Source: Candidatus Binatia bacterium
GTDB taxonomy: Bacteria; Desulfobacterota; Binatia; Bin18
Direction: 5' to 3'
Assembly: GCA_963422435.1 (NCBI GenBank)
Contig: OY729511.1
Span: 3,850,105 to 3,914,104, forward strand
DNA length: 64,000 nt
The translations under genes were made by a program, and so were the position numbers. The notes under the pieces were generated by a model. It had not been told where the DNA came from and ran no database searches. It was given only the letters and a program-made list of their open reading frames with translations. Shown in pieces: positions 4,239 to 50,588 of this stretch (the stretch's first letter is position 1; the number at the start of each line of letters is the position of its first letter).

Positions 4239-5570
4239 ATGGCGCATTTACGACAACTGCGGCTGGGCGCGTTCATGCGACCGGTCAGCATTCATACCGC
4301 GGCCTGGCGCTATCCGGGCGCGTTCCCGGATGCCAACTTCAATTTTTCCCATTACCAGCGCTTCGTCTGCACGCTGGAACGGGGCCGCTTCGACGCCTTT
4401 TTCATGGCCGATCACCTGGCCGTGCTCAATATGCCGATGGCGGCGCTCAAACGGAGTGCCACGGTCACGTCTTTTGATCCGCTCACCCTACTCCCGGCGC
4501 TGGCCACCGTCAGCACGCATCTGGGGCTGATTGCCACGGCCTCTACCACCTACAACGATCCGTATCATGTGGCGCGGAAATTTGCCTCGCTCGACCATAT
4601 CAGCGGCGGACGGGCCGGCTGGAACGTCGTGACCTCGGCCAACCCGGACGAAGCGTTGAACTTCGGACGCGAGGAACACATGGAACATGACGCGCGCTAT
4701 CGTCTGGCGCGCGAGTTCTACGATGTGGTGACCGGCCTGTGGGATAGTTGGGCGGACGATGCCTTTATTCGCGACGTCGAGGCCGGCGTGTATTTCGACC
4801 CTGAGAAGCTGCACGTGCTGAACCATACAGGCCGGCATCTCTCCGTGCGCGGCCCGCTGAATATCGCCCGGCCTATTCAGGGCTGGCCGGTCATCGTCCA
4901 GGCCGGCGCGTCAGAGGCCGGTCGTCAACTCGCCGCGGAGACCGCTGAAGTCGTGTTTTCCGGGGTCAATAATCTACAGGCCGCCCAGTCCTACTATGCG
5001 GATGTCAAAGGCCGGATGGAGGCATACGGGCGCTGTCGAGACCATCTCAAAATCCTGCCGGGTGCCTTTGTTGTCGTTGGCGACACGCTGGCCGAGGCGC
5101 GGGCAAAGAAAACGAAGCTCGACAGCCTGGTCCACCCGGATAGCGGCATGGCCACACTCTGCGTCCTGCTGGGCCATGACGTGTCGGACTCTGACCTGGA
5201 CAGTCCACTGCCCGACATCCCGGAAAGCAACGCCAGTCAATCCGGGCGGCAGAAACTGGTCGAAATGGCGCGCAAGGACAATATGACCATCAGACAGCTT
5301 GCCCAGTATGTGGGCGGCAGTTTCAGCACCCTGGAACTTACTGGCACGCCGAGCATGATCGCCGATCACATGGAGGAATGGCTCATGACCGAAGGGTCGG
5401 ACGGCTTTAATGTCATGTTCCCCTATCTGCCGGGCGGGCTGGACGACTTTGTGGACCGGGTCGTACCCGAACTACAGCGCCGCGGCCTGTTTCGACGCGA
5501 GTACGAGGGCGCGACCCTGCGTGAAAACCTTGGCCTGCCGCGTCCGGAGAATCGCTTTTTTACAGACTGA
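4239..5570 (+). CDS. LLM-class flavin-dependent monooxygenase, NtaA/SnaA/DszA family
   Basis: 443 aa. Start resembles this family (FMADHLAVLNMP...); the translation is TIM-barrel luciferase-like monooxygenase-like throughout. SD GGAGGAG upstream. Confidence 0.85.
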   Translation: MAHLRQLRLGAFMRPVSIHTAAWRYPGAFPDANFNFSHYQRFVCTLERGRFDAFFMADHLAVLNMPMAALKRSATVTSFDPLTLLPALATVSTHLGLIATASTTYNDPYHVARKFASLDHISGGRAGWNVVTSANPDEALNFGREEHMEHDARYRLAREFYDVVTGLWDSWADDAFIRDVEAGVYFDPEKLHVLNHTGRHLSVRGPLNIARPIQGWPVIVQAGASEAGRQLAAETAEVVFSGVNNLQAAQSYYADVKGRMEAYGRCRDHLKILPGAFVVVGDTLAEARAKKTKLDSLVHPDSGMATLCVLLGHDVSDSDLDSPLPDIPESNASQSGRQKLVEMARKDNMTIRQLAQYVGGSFSTLELTGTPSMIADHMEEWLMTEGSDGFNVMFPYLPGGLDDFVDRVVPELQRRGLFRREYEGATLRENLGLPRPENRFFTD

Positions 5571-9622: not shown

Positions 9623-11188
9623 ATGTCACTCATTACCTGGTCGTGGATCTTTCTCATCTTTTATATCGGCGGCATGTTGGCCATCGGCGTGTTTGCCGGG
9701 CGACGGGTCAAGCACGCTGACGACTTTGCCACCGCACGCGGCGCATACGGACCCTTATTTCTCGCGTTTGCCTTTGCCGCGACCACGGCCAGCGGCGCCA
9801 CCTTTCTCGGCAGCTCGGGCCTTGGCTACGAGTGGGGCCTGCCGACGATGTGGGGGTGCTTCCTGTACCCGACCGGGATGTATGTCGGCGTGTTGATCGC
9901 CATGCGCCTGGTTACCACCTCGGGCCATCGGTTCGGGAACCGCTCCATACCGGAGTACCTCGGGGACCGCTACCAATCCGAAGGCATCCGGATACTCATC
10001 TCGGTCTTTTCCTTAGTGCTATTTTTCTATCTGGCCGGGCAGTTGGTGTCCGGGCTGGTGATGTTCGAGATTATGCTGGGCCTGTCCCCCCTCTGGGCGC
10101 TGCTCATCACCACCACCGTGTTATTGATTTATGTCGTGCTCGGCGGCGCGCATGCCGACATCCTGACGGATGGGGTGCAGGGCTTCATGATGCTGCTGGT
10201 CGCGCTGATGGTGATCATCCTGTTTCTGACCGGATTTGGAGTAGACAGCGAAAGAGCGGGCCTGCCGGGCATTATCGACAGCCTGACCGAGCAGGACGCG
10301 TACCTGGTCGGCGTGCTGAATGCCGAGACCGCGCTGTATCATTCCTGGTGGTCCGTTGTGGCCATTTTTATTTCACACATACCCCTCGGCCTGCTGCCCC
10401 ATCTCGGGAACAAACTCTGGGCCTTAAAAAGCGTGAGCCAACAGCAATCGTTTATCAAACTGGCCTTCACGTTTGGGCTGACGCTGGGCATGCTCGGCTT
10501 GGGCGGTCTCCTGGCCCGCGCGATATTGGGCGATGCGCTTTATGCCGAGGGGGCGAACCCGAATCAGGCCCTGCCCCTCCTCTTCATCGAGCTGTTCCCA
10601 ACCTGGCTCGCCGCCCTCATTGGGGTGGGCGTGCTGGCGGCGATCATGTCCACCGCGGATGGGCTGGTCATCTCCTCATCCCAGGTGATTGCCAACGATC
10701 TCTACCGTCGGACCATCGTGCCTCGACTCAAGCATCCTCCGAATGCTGCGCAACTGGACCAGCGGATTTTAGCCATCAGTCGGGTGGCGACTGTTGTTGT
10801 TCTGGTACTGTGTACCGCCCTGGCCTGGGCTTTGGTCGAGACCAATATCGCCCTCATTGTCTGGATCGGGAACGGCGGCATGATGGCGGCCTTTGCCGGC
10901 CCCCTCGTGGTCGGTGCGCTCTGGCGCGGTGTCACCCGCACAGGCGCTTATGCCGGCCTGATCAGCGGTTTCGTCACCTTCCTCGTGCTGCACACCCAAA
11001 TGATTGATCCCGCCTGGTTCGCGCCCGGCCTGCTGCACACTGCCGCCTCCTGGCTGTACGCCGAGGGACCAAGCCCGTTCTCCTGTGCAACGATAGGGGA
11101 ACTCATGTCGGTCGCCTGTACCTATGTCGTATCCAAAGCAACCCAACCGCTGCCTGAGACGCACGTGCAGGCGTTGTTTGAGTCTTGA
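9623..11188 (+). CDS. Sodium:solute symporter (SSS) family transporter, paralog 1
   Basis: 521 aa with ~13 predicted TM helices. SSS-type N-terminus (HADDFATARGAYGPLFLAFAFAATTASGATFLGSSG). About 75% identical to the ORF at 14324-15901. Confidence 0.8.
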   Translation: MSLITWSWIFLIFYIGGMLAIGVFAGRRVKHADDFATARGAYGPLFLAFAFAATTASGATFLGSSGLGYEWGLPTMWGCFLYPTGMYVGVLIAMRLVTTSGHRFGNRSIPEYLGDRYQSEGIRILISVFSLVLFFYLAGQLVSGLVMFEIMLGLSPLWALLITTTVLLIYVVLGGAHADILTDGVQGFMMLLVALMVIILFLTGFGVDSERAGLPGIIDSLTEQDAYLVGVLNAETALYHSWWSVVAIFISHIPLGLLPHLGNKLWALKSVSQQQSFIKLAFTFGLTLGMLGLGGLLARAILGDALYAEGANPNQALPLLFIELFPTWLAALIGVGVLAAIMSTADGLVISSSQVIANDLYRRTIVPRLKHPPNAAQLDQRILAISRVATVVVLVLCTALAWALVETNIALIVWIGNGGMMAAFAGPLVVGALWRGVTRTGAYAGLISGFVTFLVLHTQMIDPAWFAPGLLHTAASWLYAEGPSPFSCATIGELMSVACTYVVSKATQPLPETHVQALFES

Positions 11189-11265
11189 ATAAGTTTCGAG
11201 GATAGATATGCAGGCCATCTGAACTGACACGGCATAAAAAGTTACAGAGGGAAAGCGGTAGTCAT

Positions 11266-11589
11266 ATGGCAAGTAGCATAAAAATAGGTCTTCAGATCGT
11301 CAGGGCTGTCCATCGCGCTCACAGACAGTTTCTCCGAGAGGCTGAGAGAAGACGTAAGGCTGAGAGAAGACGTAAGGCTGAGGAAAGGGAAGCCGCACGT
11401 CATCAACGAGAGTACGCGCGCTTGCTCAAACAGCAATCGCGTGAGAGAGCCGCTTACGAGCGAGCACAAGCGGTTGCAGGGAAGAATAGGTTTAAGCGGA
11501 GTCTAGAAAGCGCTCAAGCAGCTTTCGACATGAGATGTCGAGAGCGGAAAATCCTTCGTGACTCAATAGTCAATGCAGTTCTAAAATAG
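11266..11589 (+). CDS. Small Arg/Lys-rich predicted coiled-coil protein (107 aa), unknown function
   Basis: Low-GC ORF. Highly charged (ERRRKAERRRKAEEREAARHQRE), with an 18-bp tandem duplication at the nucleotide level. Stop lies 11 nt before the next gene start, so it is probably co-transcribed. Confidence 0.5.
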   Translation: MASSIKIGLQIVRAVHRAHRQFLREAERRRKAERRRKAEEREAARHQREYARLLKQQSRERAAYERAQAVAGKNRFKRSLESAQAAFDMRCRERKILRDSIVNAVLK

Positions 11590-11600
11590 AGTGGAGAACA

Positions 11601-13028
11601 ATGGATGCTCAGTATATTACGGGAACGCTGGGAGTCTTATCTTTTTCCATCATCACAACTTACTTCTTAGTTCGTAATAGATTTAAGAAGCAGATTGCAG
11701 CATACCGCTCCATCTCTGATGCGGTCGAGAAGACCACTCAGAAACTGACTCAAACTGAAACAGAGCTGACCGAAGCCCAGCAGGGACTTGAGACTGTTCG
11801 AGACGAAACGAAGGAGCTTCAAGACCTCAAGGAGAACGCTGGGCAACTTAAGGCTCAGTTGGAAGAGTCATCAAAGCAACTCGAAGAGATATCTGTCGAT
11901 ATTGAATCCAAAGAAGATAGACTGGACACCCTGGACGGGCAACTTCACCAATTAATGTCAAAAGTTGACCTCTATTCTAGAGTCGATGAATTTGTTGAGC
12001 ATGGCCTATTCGAAGAGCCAGAGTATCTATTTGAAACTACAGAGCGCTTCGCTGAAGAAATCAAACGAACCCGCGAGAAGCAAAAAGAATTGATCAAGAA
12101 TAAAGAAGCTGTCACTCTTCCTAGTTCCCTTACAGTTTCGTCAGATAAAAGGCAGGGCAAGAAAATACTTGAAGGTCAAGTCAAGCTCATGCTGACCACT
12201 TTTAATATTGAGTGTGATCTTCTTATCGGCAAGGTTAATCCTGGTAATTTTGCACGTGCTTTGGAGCGCATTGAGAAGCTGGCGGCTACGCTCGAAAAAT
12301 CTGCCGCTACTCTACATTGTGGGTTCAACATTGAATTTGTTCGACTAAAATTCGAGGAATGTAGGCAGCAGTATCAATACAAACTCAAGAAGCAGGAAGA
12401 ACAAGAGGAACAACGCCTGATTCGTGAGCAGATGCGCGAGGAACAAAAAGCGATCAAAGAATATGAGCGTGCATTGGCCCAGGCGGAAAAGGAGGAGCGG
12501 GTATACCGCGACATACTTGAGAGGGTCCGCAACGAACTTGAGCAGGCTACCGCAGGTGATCGCCTTCTCATAGAACAACGGATTGCTGACCTTGAGAGAC
12601 AACTTGCGGAAGCTGAGGCAAAAGAGGAGCGTGCCAAGAGCATGGCTGAACAGACGCGTCGTGGCCATGTCTATATAATAAGCAATCTAGGCTCATTCGG
12701 TGAAAACGTATACAAAATTGGCCTTACTCGCCGTCTAGAGCCTTTGGATCGTGTGAAAGAGCTTGGCGATGCAAGTGTACCCTTCTCATTTGACGTCCAT
12801 GCCCTAATCTACTCGGATGATGCCCCGGCACTTGAAAAGGCTTTGCATCGTAAGTTCGCTCATAACCGAGTTAACGTGGTGAACCTCCGTAAAGAGTTTT
12901 TTCGTACTGAGATTACCGCCATAAAAGAAGCAGTTGAAAAAATAACCAATGGAGAAGCTGACTTTAAGCTGACCGCGGTGGCAGAAGAATATTATGAATC
13001 CAGACGACTACAGAGAGTAGAGACGTAG
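11601..13028 (+). CDS. Membrane-anchored coiled-coil protein with C-terminal GIY-YIG-like (T5orf172/DUF4041-type) nuclease domain
   Basis: 475 aa. N-terminal TM helix (ITGTLGVLSFSIITTYFLV). Then ~330 aa of heptad-rich charged coiled coil. C-terminus: GHVYIISNLGSFGENVYKIGLTRRLEPLDRVKEL (GIY-x11-YIG spacing, with the Arg and Glu in the expected places). The gene's GC (~45%) is well below its surroundings. Confidence 0.6.
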   Translation: MDAQYITGTLGVLSFSIITTYFLVRNRFKKQIAAYRSISDAVEKTTQKLTQTETELTEAQQGLETVRDETKELQDLKENAGQLKAQLEESSKQLEEISVDIESKEDRLDTLDGQLHQLMSKVDLYSRVDEFVEHGLFEEPEYLFETTERFAEEIKRTREKQKELIKNKEAVTLPSSLTVSSDKRQGKKILEGQVKLMLTTFNIECDLLIGKVNPGNFARALERIEKLAATLEKSAATLHCGFNIEFVRLKFEECRQQYQYKLKKQEEQEEQRLIREQMREEQKAIKEYERALAQAEKEERVYRDILERVRNELEQATAGDRLLIEQRIADLERQLAEAEAKEERAKSMAEQTRRGHVYIISNLGSFGENVYKIGLTRRLEPLDRVKELGDASVPFSFDVHALIYSDDAPALEKALHRKFAHNRVNVVNLRKEFFRTEITAIKEAVEKITNGEADFKLTAVAEEYYESRRLQRVET

Positions 13029-15986: not shown

Positions 15987-16268
15987 CGAGTTTGCCGAAC
16001 AGTATCCCTCCCTATCACTGCACTGCGCCAGGACGCCACGACCGTGTGAAAGCAAGTCAGCCAGTCGGACGACCCGTTTGTCATCACCCAACGAGGACGA
16101 GCCGCGGCGGTGTTATTGAGTGCAGAAGCCTACCAGCGGGTCGAGTCTGAGCGGCAGATACCCAGGCTCCTGGCTCAGGGGAAAAAAGAAATTGCTGAAG
16201 GGCGTGGTATCGACTTGGACACGGTACTCGCCGAGGCCGATGTACTGCTTGAAACTGAAGACTTGTGA
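15987..16268 (+). pseudogene. Phd/YefM-family antitoxin remnant with an in-frame TGA and no in-frame start
   Basis: Frame reads ...TVSLPITALRQDATTV*KQVSQSDDPFVITQRGRAAAVLLSAEAYQRVESE...LETEDL*. This matches Phd/YefM throughout but is interrupted by TGA at 16047-16049. The only nearby ATG is in another frame. The stop overlaps the next ORF's GTG (GTGA). Confidence 0.55.
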
Positions 16269-16420
16269 CCGTTGGATTCACCCCGTCCGCTCGGGCGCAA
16301 TTCCTAGCTGCCATTACGTACATCCGTCGCGACAACCCAGGAGCGGCGAGACAGTTTCGCCAACGCGCCAAGCAGATTCTCCGTCGGCTTGGACAATTTC
16401 CAGAACGCAGCCCGGCTCGT
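16265..16420 (+). pseudogene. ParE/RelE-family toxin N-terminal fragment, 3' half lost
   Basis: MTVGFTPSARAQFLAAITYIRRDNPGAARQFRQRAKQILRRLGQFPE matches the ParE N-terminus. The similarity is lost where the convergent secreted-protein gene ends (16420). Confidence 0.5.
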
Positions 16421-16938
16421 CAGATGATGGGGGTATCCTCCACATCAGTCATCTCCATGTGTTGGGTGCTCTGGTTCCACTCAAATGTCGTGGTCTCCCC
16501 TGGACTAGGGAAACCCGAGAGCCGGCACGTGCCACTCGCCCCTTTCAAAAACGCCTCCCCTGTCGTCGTTACGGTGAGCCTGGCCTCCGCAAATAAGACG
16601 CCATTATCATAAGCCTTGGCGGTGTGGGGCCCATCGCCGAGTTCGCCCCAGTTCCAGATGGCGACAAAACCGTTGTCGGTATCTCCACACACCTCTTGGG
16701 TATCGGGCCGCTGACTGCCGTATAGCATGGGAACTGGATTCGGAATGCCCTCTGCAATGAGGGCCCCATCGTTGAATTCAACGGTGATGTCTCCCTCAGC
16801 GTCACATTTCCATCCGCTGATCACCCCAACACCCGATAATTTGGTCCCGTCGCTCGGCACACCAAGGGCAGACTGGGCATGAACCAGAGCCGGGACCAGA
16901 ACAATGAGTGTAGTAGAAATACAATGCAGAAAAGACAT
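16420..16938 (-). CDS. Secreted protein of unknown function (signal peptide)
   Basis: 172 aa; N-terminal MSFLHCISTTLIVLVPALVHA-QS signal peptide. AGGAGG SD upstream. Confidence 0.55.
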   Translation of the reverse strand: MSFLHCISTTLIVLVPALVHAQSALGVPSDGTKLSGVGVISGWKCDAEGDITVEFNDGALIAEGIPNPVPMLYGSQRPDTQEVCGDTDNGFVAIWNWGELGDGPHTAKAYDNGVLFAEARLTVTTTGEAFLKGASGTCRLSGFPSPGETTTFEWNQSTQHMEMTDVEDTPII

Positions 16939-17092
16939 CAGTACCTCCTAACTAAGAAAGAGTCCTTTTTTCTTTAGCTCTTCTATTTATCATTCCGTTT
17001 AGCTGCCTCTCATTTTTCCCGCCGTCGTTTCCACAAGAAGAGCAACCAGTACAAAAACCGATTCATAGTTCTCTCCCGCTGGGCTATTCCTA

Positions 17093-17791
17093 TTAACTGA
17101 TATACAGGGAGAAAGTCGAAAGCGCAGCAGAAGACGGGAGGGTAATTTCAATCTCAACAGTGTCGTCTTCTATGACAGGGGACCACACCGGAGGGTCGGG
17201 CGGCAGAGGACCGTTTACAGCAGTAGACTCCTCTGCCTGTGGGAGGGGACCGTACCCTAGCGGAGGGTCAGCAGGCAGCTCACGAGTCTGGGGAGTGAAA
17301 TCGTGCTCTGTCAGGGGAGCAAAGGTTTGGATGGGGCCAACCGGACTAGAGAAGCGCAGTTCTGCGCCTGCGGGCAAGATGGCAGACACGGCAATTCGTA
17401 GCGCCATCGCACCGGGTGAGGTCACGCTGGGCGCACTGAGCAGCGTCCCATCGCTCAGCGTGGTCCATTCCAGACGTGGCGCCATATCGTCACGATAGGC
17501 AGCGGGAATCTCCCGGCCAAAGCCGATTTGCAAAGGGAAGTCCTCTCTCTGCTCCCACTCCGCTTGCTCAGAGTTGGTGACCGCTGGCAACGTAATGCGG
17601 AGTAATTGGGGAATAGGTGTATCCTGTGTGAGCGACTGCGCTTGCTGCGGCAGATGAGTGTCGTCCTCCACTTCTGGGGGTCTGAATGCGCCGTCAATTC
17701 CTTGTGCCTCGCCGATAGCCGAAAAACTGAGAACCAGGATGAAAAAAAAGGGCAGAAAGAGAATATGTAGAGAAAACACTGATAACCTCAC
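17093..17791 (-). CDS. Secreted or membrane-anchored protein of unknown function (GTG start, signal peptide)
   Basis: 232 aa; hydrophobic leader LHILFLPFFFILVLSFSAIGEA. Pro-rich C-terminal region. GTG start 3 nt from the large palindrome. Confidence 0.5.
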   Translation of the reverse strand: MRLSVFSLHILFLPFFFILVLSFSAIGEAQGIDGAFRPPEVEDDTHLPQQAQSLTQDTPIPQLLRITLPAVTNSEQAEWEQREDFPLQIGFGREIPAAYRDDMAPRLEWTTLSDGTLLSAPSVTSPGAMALRIAVSAILPAGAELRFSSPVGPIQTFAPLTEHDFTPQTRELPADPPLGYGPLPQAEESTAVNGPLPPDPPVWSPVIEDDTVEIEITLPSSAALSTFSLYIS

Positions 17792-17793
17792 AG

Positions 17794-17838
17794 CATCCCT
17801 AAGATATAGTTTTAGCCACTAATTATATCTTAGGGATG
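17794..17838. promoter_or_regulatory. 15-bp perfect inverted repeat (CATCCCTAAGATATA / TATATCTTAGGGATG, 15-nt spacer); candidate operator or RBS-sequestering hairpin
   Basis: Seen directly in the sequence. Lies in the AT-rich divergent region between the secreted-protein gene (17791, minus) and the XRE regulator (17947, plus). An 11-nt direct repeat AGATATAGTTT occurs at 17802 and 17856. Confidence 0.6.
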
Positions 17839-17946
17839 TTTCCCTATCACCATCAGATATAGTTTGTCAAGTAAATACCACTGTGGGTCAATTCATCCGA
17901 CCTAGAAGCGTCTTCATACTGCCCTTGAACTGCGAGGCGGTTATGT

Positions 17947-18270
17947 ATGGATGACCGAAAACTATTGGGAAAGCGGATCAAAAGCCTGCGAAAATCAAAG
18001 GGGCATACCCAGGAGCGGCTGGCGGAAATCATGGACATCAGTTCCAACTATCTGGCTGGCATTGAGCGAGGAGAGGCAAATCCAACCCTGGCTCTGCTTG
18101 AGCGTCTTTCCACGGGTCTGGAGGTCCCGCTGCCCGAATTGTTCAAGTATCGCCCGGAGGAAGGATACCAACCGGCCCAACTTCGCCAGAGGCTGGACCG
18201 GCTGGTCAACGAAGCCGGTGACGGAGAGCTGCCCCGGCTGACTCGTGTTTTTGAGGCGTTGTTGGAGTAA
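17947..18270 (+). CDS. XRE-family (Cro/C1-type) HTH transcriptional regulator
   Basis: 107 aa; LGKRIKSLRKSKGHTQERLAEIMDISSNYLAGIERGEANPTLALLERL is a canonical HTH_3 motif. Confidence 0.85.
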   Translation: MDDRKLLGKRIKSLRKSKGHTQERLAEIMDISSNYLAGIERGEANPTLALLERLSTGLEVPLPELFKYRPEEGYQPAQLRQRLDRLVNEAGDGELPRLTRVFEALLE

Positions 18271-18358
18271 CACCGGGGCGAAGGCCGCCCCGCTTTGCCA
18301 CGGGGTGTACACTCATACGTATTGACATTTATGGTGAGTAGAGACGAAAAAAGAGCGG

Positions 18359-18556
18359 ATGACCACGCACACAACGCAATTTGTCTATTGGGAGGAAGAT
18401 GGAGCGTGGCTAGGCTATCTCCACGAGTATCCTGATTACTGGACGCAAGGCGAGACGCTGGACGCCCTGAAAGACCATCTGCGAGACTTGTATGCTGACC
18501 TGACCGGCGGGGACCTGACCGGTATCCGCAAAATGGACGAATTAGCCTTGACATGA
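18359..18556 (+). CDS. hicB: HicB-family antitoxin (short, N-terminal domain only)
   Basis: 65 aa; FVYWEEDGAWLGYLHEYPDYWTQGETLDALKDHLRDLY matches the HicB N-terminal domain. Its stop overlaps the next ATG (ATGA). Confidence 0.6.
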   Translation: MTTHTTQFVYWEEDGAWLGYLHEYPDYWTQGETLDALKDHLRDLYADLTGGDLTGIRKMDELALT

Positions 18557-18768
18557 AACGAGTCGCTCTAGTCAAACGGATTGAAGGATTTGGTTGTATT
18601 TTGGTAAGGCATGGCGGTAGGCACGCCTCTCATCTGCATAGGAAACAATAACAATATTGGTATCGTAATCCGGTAACCGGAGTTTATCAGCCGGTTCCTC
18701 GTCAGCGGAAAATCAAAGAGAATCTAGCCAAGCATATTATCAAACAGTTGAGTAATCCTTCTGGTTAG
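18553..18768 (+). pseudogene. hicA: HicA-family toxin with an in-frame TAA at codon 33
   Basis: MKRVALVKRIEGFGCILVRHGGRHASHLHRKQ*QYWYRNPVTGVYQPVPRQRKIKENLAKHIIKQLSNPSG*. Both halves resemble HicA (EGFGCILVR.GGRH...H and the C-terminal ...L...HIIKQ), joined by TAA at 18649-18651. Confidence 0.5.
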
Positions 18769-18840
18769 ACGGTAAATAGATACCGCCAAAGCCGCCCCGG
18801 TCTGAGGAATTGGAGACACACTGCACGGAGGACACACACC

Positions 18841-19488
18841 ATGCTGAAAATCTACGGGACGACCCTGAGCAATTATTACAGCACGGCCAAGGCCGCGCTG
18901 GTCGAAAAGGGACTCGCCTTTGAGGAAGTCCCGGTTATGCCGAGCCCGAAACCCGAAGTCCTAGCCAAAAGCCCGATGGGCAAGGTGCCCTATATTGAGG
19001 TCGAAGGCACAACCTTGACCGAGACAAACATCATCTTCGACTATCTCGAAGATATCCAGCCACAGCCGGCACTGTATCCCAGCGACCCCTGGGCTAGGGC
19101 CAAAGTCAAAGAAATCATCCGGTGTGTCGAGCTGTATCTCGACACACCGGCGCGGCGCCACCTGCCGACGGTGTACTTCGGCGCGCCGGTTGATCAGGCC
19201 GCATACGACGCAGTCCGGCCATTACTGGAAAACGGGCTACGGGCGCTCAAGCAACTCGCCCGCTTCGAGCCCTATATCGCCGGCGACACATTTACCTTCG
19301 CCGACCTGACCGCCTATTTCGAGATGCGCTTCACCAATCTGCACACTACGCAAATCTATAACTGGGACATTACGGCTGACGTGCCCGGCCTTGGCGAGTA
19401 TTTGCACTTGGTCGGCGAACGACCGGCGGTCAACGCGGTCGATTCCGTCATGCAACGAGATTTTGCGGCCTTCAAGAACAAGAGCTAG
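18841..19488 (+). CDS. Glutathione S-transferase
   Basis: 215 aa; N-terminal thioredoxin-like GST domain (MLKIYGTTLSNYYSTAKAALVEKGLAFEEV...PMGKVPYIEVEG) and C-terminal helical domain. Confidence 0.8.
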   Translation: MLKIYGTTLSNYYSTAKAALVEKGLAFEEVPVMPSPKPEVLAKSPMGKVPYIEVEGTTLTETNIIFDYLEDIQPQPALYPSDPWARAKVKEIIRCVELYLDTPARRHLPTVYFGAPVDQAAYDAVRPLLENGLRALKQLARFEPYIAGDTFTFADLTAYFEMRFTNLHTTQIYNWDITADVPGLGEYLHLVGERPAVNAVDSVMQRDFAAFKNKS

Positions 19489-45786: not shown

Positions 45787-46653
45787 ATGGCCAAGATCAT
45801 GATTGAGGCAGCCATCAACGGCAATTCCGATAAAGCCCGCAACCCCAATATTGCCTATAGCCCGGAAGACATTGCCAAGGATGCCATTGCGACCTGTCAG
45901 GCCGGCGCGGCCGCGGTTCATTTTCATGTCAGGGAGCCCGACACGGGCGAATGGGTGCAGGACGTGGGATATTACAGCGAGGTGTTCAGGCGGACGCGCG
46001 CGCGGTGCAATCCCATTCTCTGGCCCACATTTCCGTTCGGCGATGACCCGGTTGAGCGCTTTGCCCATTTTCTGGAACTCGCCAAAGACCCGGCTACAAA
46101 ACCGGACCTGGGCTGGGCTGATCCTGGCTCGGTCAACCTGGTTTCGTATGACGCGCGCACCAAAACGCTCTCGGGCGGAAATTTCATCTATCAGAATTCG
46201 TATGACGCCAATCGGTATTTTCTGGAACAGTCGCGGGCCTGCGGGGTGAGACCGACCCTCCAGATTTTTGATCCCAGCTTTCTGCGGGCGGTGCTGGTTT
46301 TTCTGGACCAGGGTCTGCTGACCGAACCCTTGTTGATCAAGTTCTATTTTGGCGGACCGGAGTTGCCGTTTGGCCTGCCCCCTTCCCTTAAGAGCCTGGA
46401 AGCCTATTTGGCTATGCTGCACGGCGTGCGCTGCAACTGGTTTGCGGCCACGCTTGGCGGAGATAATCTGCCGTTTATCCCGCACATCGTCAGCCTGGGG
46501 GGCCATGTCCGGCTTGGCCTGGAAGACCACCATTATGCGCGGGAGGGACAGCCCGCAAACCCACAACTTGTCGAGCGCGCCGTGGCAACCATTACCGCTA
46601 TGGGACACGAGGTGGCGACGCCGGACGAGGCGCGGGCCATCATAGAAGCCTAA
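45787..46653 (+). CDS. 3-keto-5-aminohexanoate cleavage enzyme family (BKACE/DUF849) protein
   Basis: IMIEAAINGN...AVHFHVREPDTGEW...; TIM-barrel BKACE pattern. 288 aa. Confidence 0.7.
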   Translation: MAKIMIEAAINGNSDKARNPNIAYSPEDIAKDAIATCQAGAAAVHFHVREPDTGEWVQDVGYYSEVFRRTRARCNPILWPTFPFGDDPVERFAHFLELAKDPATKPDLGWADPGSVNLVSYDARTKTLSGGNFIYQNSYDANRYFLEQSRACGVRPTLQIFDPSFLRAVLVFLDQGLLTEPLLIKFYFGGPELPFGLPPSLKSLEAYLAMLHGVRCNWFAATLGGDNLPFIPHIVSLGGHVRLGLEDHHYAREGQPANPQLVERAVATITAMGHEVATPDEARAIIEA

Positions 46654-50467: not shown

Positions 50468-50588
50468 GACCGGCGCGCCGACGCACTCGACACGCAGGAA
50501 AAAAGACTGCGCAGATATAGCGGGGGAAGACAACAGGGGGAAGAGCAGAGCTGTCTCCGCTATGGCTCCGCTCTTCCCCCTGTCCGGT

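Follow-up and report, generated by a model that had tools for sequence, protein, structure and literature searches.

A perfect palindrome beside an XRE-family regulator gene of Candidatus Binatia is probably the distal member of a conserved pair of operator sites

Introduction

This study asked what role is played by a perfect inverted repeat that lies between a regulator gene of the XRE family and a divergently oriented gene for a secreted protein in a Candidatus Binatia genome. The whole stretch of DNA that was analysed, 64 kb in length, is referred to here as the window. A sequence-only reading of the window had offered two possible roles for the repeat: as RNA, a stem that would hide the ribosome-binding site of the secreted-protein gene, or, as DNA, an operator bound by the product of the neighbouring XRE gene. 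To our knowledge, no transcription factor site has been characterised in Candidatus Binatia/Binatota. Comparison with related loci favours the DNA reading: the palindrome is probably O1, the distal of a conserved pair of sites (O1 and O2) situated between the XRE gene and the leftward secreted-protein unit, and its perfect symmetry is a secondary feature.

Results

A single-copy inverted repeat and an 11-nt direct repeat

The palindrome consists of CATCCCTAAGATATA (17794-17808) and, after a spacer of 15 nt, its exact reverse complement (17824-17838), just as had been read from the sequence. The arms are perfect over 15 nt and extend to 18 nt each if one mismatch is allowed. No other perfect inverted repeat in the 64-kb window with a spacer of up to 40 nt is as long, and when the window was resampled 40 times with a first-order Markov model, the longest such repeats measured 9-13 nt and never reached 15 nt. 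An independent Logan assembly (L001) carries a sequence identical to that of the window, and the palindrome is therefore not an assembly artefact. The 11-nt repeat that had been described as recurring 53 nt away was also found: AGATATAGTTT occurs just twice in the window, at 17802 and 17855, where chance alone would give 0.2 matches. The positions of the main features of the locus are collected in Table 1.

No further copies of the palindrome occur in the 64-kb window, and with just this one copy an interpretation as a mobile element or REP sequence was rejected. A reading as a terminator was also rejected, there being no terminator-like site and no T-run. The next-longest perfect inverted repeat in the window has 14-nt arms and a 23-nt spacer (50533-50546 / 50570-50583), and one with 13-nt arms and a 6-nt spacer lies within the GST open reading frame (19119-19131 / 19138-19150). 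Elsewhere in the window, positions 11001-13000 have a GC content of 0.46-0.50, compared with ~0.59 in the remainder, and may represent horizontally acquired DNA.

Table 1. Genes, binding sites, and candidate promoter elements of the locus, in window coordinates.
Feature	Position	Strand	Description
Secreted protein, 172 aa, next in leftward unit	16420-16938	-	No Pfam match
Protease remnant, 228 aa	17093-17779	-	Lysyl_endopep_N domain only (PF27052); hydrophobic N-terminal signal-like segment
O1, distal site (the palindrome)	17794-17838		Orthologous to O1 of other Binatia loci
O1 half-site, protease side, CATCCCTAAGATATAGTTT	17794-17812	+	Matrix rank 2, score 16.1; 13/19 versus consensus
O1 half-site, XRE side, CATCCCTAAGATATAATTA	17820-17838	-	Matrix rank 5, score 13.5
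Alternative candidate leftward promoter, GTGATA-17-TATAAT	17822-17850	-	10/12 matches, consensus scan only
O2, proximal site	17847-17890		Pair found at -100 in the window and at -96 in 13 other loci
Candidate leftward -35, TTGACA, at O2 centre	17865-17870	-	TTGTCAA nearly invariant; alignment
Candidate XRE promoter, TTCATC (17892-17897)-17-CATACT (17915-17920)	17892-17920	+	Invariant alignment columns
XRE/SinR-like HTH regulator, 107 aa, presumed O1/O2 binder	17947-18270	+	PF01381, E=3e-14

The leftward gene is a protease remnant that probably starts outside the palindrome

The sequence-only reading had set the start codon of the leftward gene (GTG 17791) directly against the palindrome and its Shine-Dalgarno sequence (AGGGA) inside one arm, and neither placement held. 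The protein as deposited (P0001; NCBI, ENA, and Logan) is 228 aa in length and starts at GTG 17779. The ATG of its orthologue in L002 (80% identical) aligns with this codon, and at the position of the upstream GTG 17791 the L002 sequence reads ATG AGG TAG, with an in-frame stop. A conserved GAGG (17786-17789) precedes GTG 17779 by 6 nt and is separated from the arm by 4 nt. The start and the stop in L002 together point to this GAGG, and not the AGGGA of the arm, as the Shine-Dalgarno sequence, and the true start is likely GTG 17779.

In relatives, the products of the corresponding genes are longer. That of L002 has 370 aa, followed by an IS element and then 494 aa, while in L003 a 299-aa product precedes one of 632 aa that contains Trypsin_2 and PPC domains. 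By blastn, the window is without ~2.8 kb that are present in L002 and L003, with the junction at 17046-17093, and this absent DNA specifies the catalytic (Trypsin_2) and PPC portions of a ~900-aa, secreted, lysyl-endopeptidase-like protease. Given this deletion, the supposed secreted-protein gene is a truncated remnant, of which the signal peptide and N-terminal domain are left. The following gene of the leftward unit, for a secreted protein of 172 aa, contains a domain of ~140 aa that is also found after the protease gene in L002-L004, and which is encoded divergently to the XRE gene in L009, L012 (twice), L014 (twice), L022, and L208. From this distribution, a secreted protein with the ~140-aa domain is likely a conserved target of the XRE regulator. 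On the forward strand of the same region (16110-16612), a 52-aa open reading frame overlaps one resembling ParE toxins (PF05016, E=7e-6); the latter specifies 115 aa and is longer than the 84-aa ParE-like gene of L208.

The divergent gene encodes a SinR-like regulator

The assignment of the divergent neighbour to the XRE family was borne out. Its product matches HTH_3 (PF01381) over residues 11-65 with 53.2 bits, relative to a gathering cut-off of 23, which places it in the XRE/Cro-C1 family. Among solved structures, the best sequence match was Bacillus subtilis SinR (1b0n_A, E=7e-10; residues 6-91 of the query against 1-86 of SinR), and the likeness runs past the helix-turn-helix into the linker and C-terminal helices. 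An AlphaFold model of the monomer shows a five-helix HTH domain with pLDDT values of 80-93, and two C-terminal helices (76-89 and 92-106) with values below 50. The fold neighbours of the HTH domain were the controller (C) proteins C.BclI, C.AhdI, and C.Esp1396I, together with ClgR and SinR. SinR is a tetramer (PMC3163267), and C.Esp1396I has been solved as a tetramer on its natural operator (PDB 3clc; PMC4041747). The 45-bp sites described below, with their four conserved blocks and their occurrence as two phased sites, would suit a multimeric binder.

Two other classes of HTH regulator were considered. No restriction or modification genes lie near the XRE gene, which speaks against a controller of a restriction-modification system; downstream, in the window and in relatives, there are a 65-aa open reading frame and genes for a GST and a DEAD-box helicase. 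Nor was a co-transcribed toxin gene recognised adjoining the HTH gene, as would be expected for a HipB/HigA-like antitoxin, and the NCBIfam antitoxin models match the XRE protein far under their cut-offs. The 65-aa open reading frame (18359-18556, forward strand; MTTHTTQFVYWEEDGAWLGYLHEYPDYWTQGE...) is conserved in most loci, directly after the XRE gene. Neither Pfam nor NCBIfam gave a match for it, and on reading its sequence appears to resemble HicB-like antitoxins.

Two sites at fixed distances upstream of the regulator gene

Close homologues of the XRE protein (74-97% identity, the closest being P0008 with 97%) were confined to metagenome-assembled genomes of Candidatus Binatia, and the upstream regions of the XRE genes at about 15 such loci were aligned and scanned. 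Two sites recur in them. In 13 of the loci, O1 starts 148-149 nt and O2 96 nt before the XRE ATG; the corresponding offsets in the window are 153 and 100 nt, because of a 4-nt duplication (ATGT) at the XRE start codon. This duplication (17943-17954) is not present in 10 aligned relatives, and makes an out-of-frame mini-ORF (ATG TAT GGA TGA) that overlaps the true ATG at 17947. O1, which in the window is the palindrome, is orthologous by position and core sequence in 14 other loci, and so has the arrangement of an operator: an inverted repeat upstream of its own regulator gene, with position and sequence conserved among orthologues. The axes of O1 and O2 (17816 and 17868.5) are 52.5 bp apart, equal to five helical turns.

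Both sites are composed of 19-nt half-sites with a core of AGATATA and a family consensus of TGTCTGACAGATATAGTTT. The XRE-side half-site of O1 is the same as the other arm at 17 of 19 positions, and includes TATAAT on the minus strand (17827-17822). The left half-site of O2 (17847-17865, TCACCATCAGATATAGTTT; matrix rank 1, score 18.5) includes the 11-nt repeat, the copy at 17855 thus being part of the left half of O2, and is followed by the spacer GTCAAG (17866-17871) and a right half-site (17872-17890) that is degenerate in the window. Across loci, the centre of O2 (TTGTCAA) is nearly invariant, while the spacer of O1 varies. A weight matrix was built from 18 half-sites of nine other loci, with the window left out, and used to score ~128,000 window positions. 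The left half-site of O2 and the left and right half-sites of O1 ranked first, second, and fifth. Other high scores, at 46179-46197 and 5278-5296, fell inside long open reading frames and had no partner half-sites.

The pair of sites accompanies the XRE gene even though the divergent gene varies among loci. In L002, which has two XRE paralogues, a separate pair accompanies each of them. In L002b, L011, and L015, 320-450 nt are inserted between O2 and the XRE gene, and the spacing between O1 and O2 is kept; the inserted DNA is GC-rich (L002, 8648-9020; also in L011 and L015), and moves both sites together with their 52-53-bp spacing unchanged. The sequence of L207, with an XRE protein that is 96% identical, ends inside O1. 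A scan of metagenome contigs with the O2 17-mer CAGATATAGTTYGTCAA was set aside: of the 120 loci recovered, none was related to the window by blastn, and they are therefore chance matches.

Two further conserved elements were seen around the sites. A leader of ~75 nt (...GGACAAACGAGTAAATCCGAAGCGAGAAACAAGGGAG...) is conserved beyond O1 on the leftward strand in L006-L018, L206, and L208 (e.g., L012, 2275-2351), where it sits between O1 and divergent genes that vary by locus; it is absent from the window and L002a. It gave no consensus RNA structure (RNAalifold, -0.7 kcal/mol) and no Rfam match. The motif AAnTTCAAAnTGAGACACYACC recurs at the edges of insertions and homology breaks around the operators (L002, 3725-3760 and 8935-8965; L009, ~2255-2280; L208, ~2755-2780; and L011, directly before the XRE ATG). 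It borders, for example, the 78-nt insert that splits O1 in L002a, and may be the end of a small mobile element.

Candidate promoters overlap or adjoin the sites

Promoters were called by scanning for the sigma-70 consensus, which may not be valid for this phylum. The nearly invariant centre of O2 contains a candidate -35 hexamer (TTGACA) for leftward transcription, and the conservation of this centre, compared with the variable centre of O1, supports a promoter role. On the leftward strand of L009 and L012 it forms part of TTGACA-16-AATAAT, with 11 of 12 consensus matches and a predicted start at the outer edge of O1. In the window, the -10 of the O2-centred candidate, as read from the sequence, is a degenerate GATAGG (17848-17843). 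The alternative leftward candidate of the window has its -10 in the XRE-side arm of O1 and a predicted start at ~17815, in the O1 spacer. With candidate starts inside or at the edge of the palindrome, the full RNA hairpin would not, or would barely, be transcribed. In the rightward direction, CATACTG is invariant in 11 loci and is preceded at 17 nt by TTCAYC; this is presumably the promoter of the XRE gene, and O2 ends 2 nt before its weak -35.

The arms vary like protein-binding sites

If the palindrome acted as an RNA stem, pairing should be maintained on the transcribed strand. With the window excluded, the arms of a locus agreed with each other at 13.4 of 19 positions, compared with 12.9 of 19 across loci (p=0.08). 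Mismatches between arms were mostly transitions, of which 26 would be G-U in the leftward RNA and 36 would be C-A, the latter equivalent to G-U in the opposite strand (p=0.25). A common arm consensus without strand-specific compensation is the pattern of a protein-binding site, and not of an RNA hairpin. Position 16 is asymmetric in 10 of 15 loci, being G in the far arm but A in the arm nearer the XRE gene; the window is one of these, and position 16 is the only mismatch between its arms. Pairing in the alignment (80.7%) exceeded that of column shuffles (76.8%; 1/500), an excess that relatedness alone could give and which was largely due to the window and L208. No Rfam family was found at E≤1 for positions 16900-18900 of the window, nor at the gathering threshold in 10 related loci. 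In the other loci, 100-450 nt separate O1 from the divergent start codon, and it cannot therefore be a ribosome-binding-site element in general. In the window, the likely Shine-Dalgarno sequence and start lie beyond the end of the stem (17794), and pairing is not kept by compensatory or wobble changes. It was concluded from these comparisons that O1 and O2 most plausibly act at the DNA level, as protein-binding sites.

The perfect symmetry is a derived feature

Although the O1 arms of the window are alike at 17 of 19 positions, they agree with the consensus at only 13 and 11, which are the lowest values in the set; an identity of at least 17 was seen in 1 of 210 comparisons across loci. With matrix scores of 16.1 and 13.5, its half-sites fall below all training sites (19.6-29), making this the weakest O1 of the set by the family matrix, and it may bind weakly. 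The perfection of the arms does not point to a better operator. The two arms share a derived outer flank that reads CATCCCTAAG instead of TGTCTGACAG. Co-evolution with a changed protein was considered and rejected. The HTH region is identical in P0010 of L206, with an XRE protein 95% identical and O1 flanks near consensus, and in the window itself O2 retains a flank nearer to the consensus, so a change in protein specificity is not the cause.

Substitutions that depart from the consensus in the same way in both arms, with the HTH unchanged, suggest copying from arm to arm. Most simply, the complement of the XRE-side arm, which probably served as the template, would have replaced the sequence of the far arm in a quasipalindrome template switch. 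In the syntenic relative L002a, where O1 is split by the 78-nt insertion, the XRE-side arm reads CCCTTAG and the far arm CTGTCAG. Template switching that turns quasipalindromes into perfect palindromes is an established mutational mechanism (PMC7202029). The arms of L208 also agree at 17 of 19 positions, and those of L006 are homogenised to a lesser degree. Homogenisation therefore recurs, which could mean selection and not mutation.

Discussion

The palindrome is best explained as a regulatory site that is shared by a family of related loci. The suggestion that it is an operator for the divergent XRE regulator gained support from the comparison, in which the sites lie at a fixed distance from the regulator gene in about 13 genomes and their half-sites stand at the top of the matrix ranking, and we infer that the regulator binds them. 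It would bind O2 as a dimer or tetramer. O2 would hold the leftward TTGACA -35 and abut the -35 of the regulator's own promoter, and the regulator would also bind O1, over the leftward -10 and start region. Axes that are 52.5 bp apart would place both sites on the same face of the helix, where cooperative binding is possible. Occupancy of O2 and O1 would then shut down leftward transcription and autoregulate the XRE gene. This is ordinary repressor-operator gene control, and its sole unusual feature is that the arms of one site have been made identical in this lineage. Some features of the window fit the model less well. The O2-centred promoter has a poor -10 (GATAGG), the first regulated gene is a truncated remnant, and a 45-bp site with core half-sites 22 bp apart is long for a single HTH dimer.

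The length of the sites also bears on whether another protein, such as a global regulator, might bind them, with the link to the XRE gene reflecting only a conserved promoter architecture. An extent of 45 bp with four conserved blocks per site is unusual for a small HTH dimer, and the half-sites resemble -10 hexamers (YATAAT / TATAGT), so that the conservation could be partly that of promoters. Half-sites that score above the two chance hits within open reading frames were found nowhere else in the 64-kb window, and XRE paralogues within one genome each have their own pair; binding by another protein is thus unlikely, though not negligibly so. Autoregulation through an upstream palindrome is typical of XRE-family repressors (cI, Cro, SinR, HipB, and C proteins). 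Sequestration of the ribosome-binding site by an RNA hairpin, with both arms in the leftward mRNA and the stem hiding the Shine-Dalgarno sequence of the secreted-protein gene, was the other proposal of the sequence-only reading, and is very unlikely. The 91-nt segment, if transcribed, does fold strongly (-29.5 kcal/mol, z=-3.8), and the stem ends 2 nt from GTG 17791. Against this, the probable start GTG 17779 and its GAGG (17786-17789) are both outside the stem, and the best consensus promoter would start in the loop at ~17815, so that only one arm would be transcribed, while transcription from the O2-centred promoter would begin where the outer arm ends. The distance of 100-450 nt from O1 to the divergent start in other loci, the absence of a G-U excess on the transcribed strand (26 versus 36), and the lack of an Rfam match point the same way. 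Least probable is a sequence without any regulatory role, whether a palindrome of chance or neutral origin or the terminal repeat of a mobile element. The adjoining gene is a deletion remnant, and insertions and rearrangements surround the locus in relatives, as might be expected of such a sequence; yet the resamples gave a maximum of 13 nt and no 15-nt arm, the palindrome is single-copy in the window, and its orthologues in 14 other loci contradict a neutral origin.

A separate question is whether the symmetry itself was selected, as a DNA cruciform or a stabilising RNA hairpin at the 5' end of the transcript, beside or instead of an operator. The window and L208 arrived independently at 17/19, pairing and covariation are slightly above those of shuffles, the single-stranded DNA hairpin is stable (-13.4 kcal/mol, z=-8.8), and with the leftward start predicted at the outer edge of O1 in most loci, the RNA would begin with the O1 stem. 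This is nevertheless distinctly improbable, as the arms of most loci agree at only 11-15 of 19 positions, mismatches compatible with wobble pairing show no strand bias, and 10 of 15 loci, the window included, show the systematic asymmetry at position 16. A spacer of 15 nt is also unfavourable for the extrusion of a cruciform. A more speculative view, which we regard as rather unlikely, is that the arms in this regulator family undergo recurrent concerted evolution by hairpin-templated copying, and that palindromes which have drifted from the consensus are kept. If true, the regulator would respond in the outer 8 bp to symmetry or DNA shape more than to the identity of the bases or, alternatively, the site would have a second, structure-dependent role, for example as a 5'-terminal RNA stem or a cruciform.

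The operator model resembles several known systems without coinciding with any of them. SinR of B. subtilis (PDB 1b0n/3zkc) is of similar size (111 compared with 107 aa) and layout, with an N-terminal HTH and a short, C-terminal helical region that multimerises, and it binds inverted repeats. It differs in sharing only ~26-40% identity; the C-terminal helices of the window protein are modelled with low confidence, no SinI-like antagonist was identified for it, and the half-site AGAYATARTTT bears no relation to that recognised by SinR. C proteins (C.AhdI, C.BclI, and C.Esp1396I; 1y7y, 2b5a, and 3clc) have the closest HTH fold, with target-normalised TM-scores of 0.8-0.94, and their composite operators of ~35 bp are bound cooperatively by two dimers, with autoregulation at their own promoter (PMC4041747). 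In contrast, the window regulator has an additional 40 aa at its C-terminus, and two sites of 44-45 bp that are 52.5 bp apart in place of one 35-bp box. In lambdoid phages (cI/Cro) and PBSX (Xre), the repressor gene is divergent from its targets, and multiple palindromic operators overlap both promoters. The proximal site of the window is similarly placed just upstream of the weak candidate -35 of the regulator gene, as is OR2 at PRM. The window locus, however, is not in a prophage, its flanks being chromosomal and conserved, its sites are far longer and only two in number, and a Cro-like partner is absent.

The perfected arms of O1 have a parallel in template-switch mutation, in which a quasipalindrome is perfected in one step by clustered and mutually complementary changes in one arm (PMC7202029). 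Here, the event is deduced from the comparative pattern alone, and no intermediate genotype was found. The locus thus provides a natural example of probable quasipalindrome correction within a functional site, where perfection is a derived departure from the consensus. More generally, the analysis gives a testable cis-regulatory model for the uncultured phylum Candidatus Binatia/Binatota (PMC8262859), comprising a half-site consensus, two phased sites, candidate divergent promoters, and likely secreted-protein targets, including the uncharacterised ~140-aa domain.
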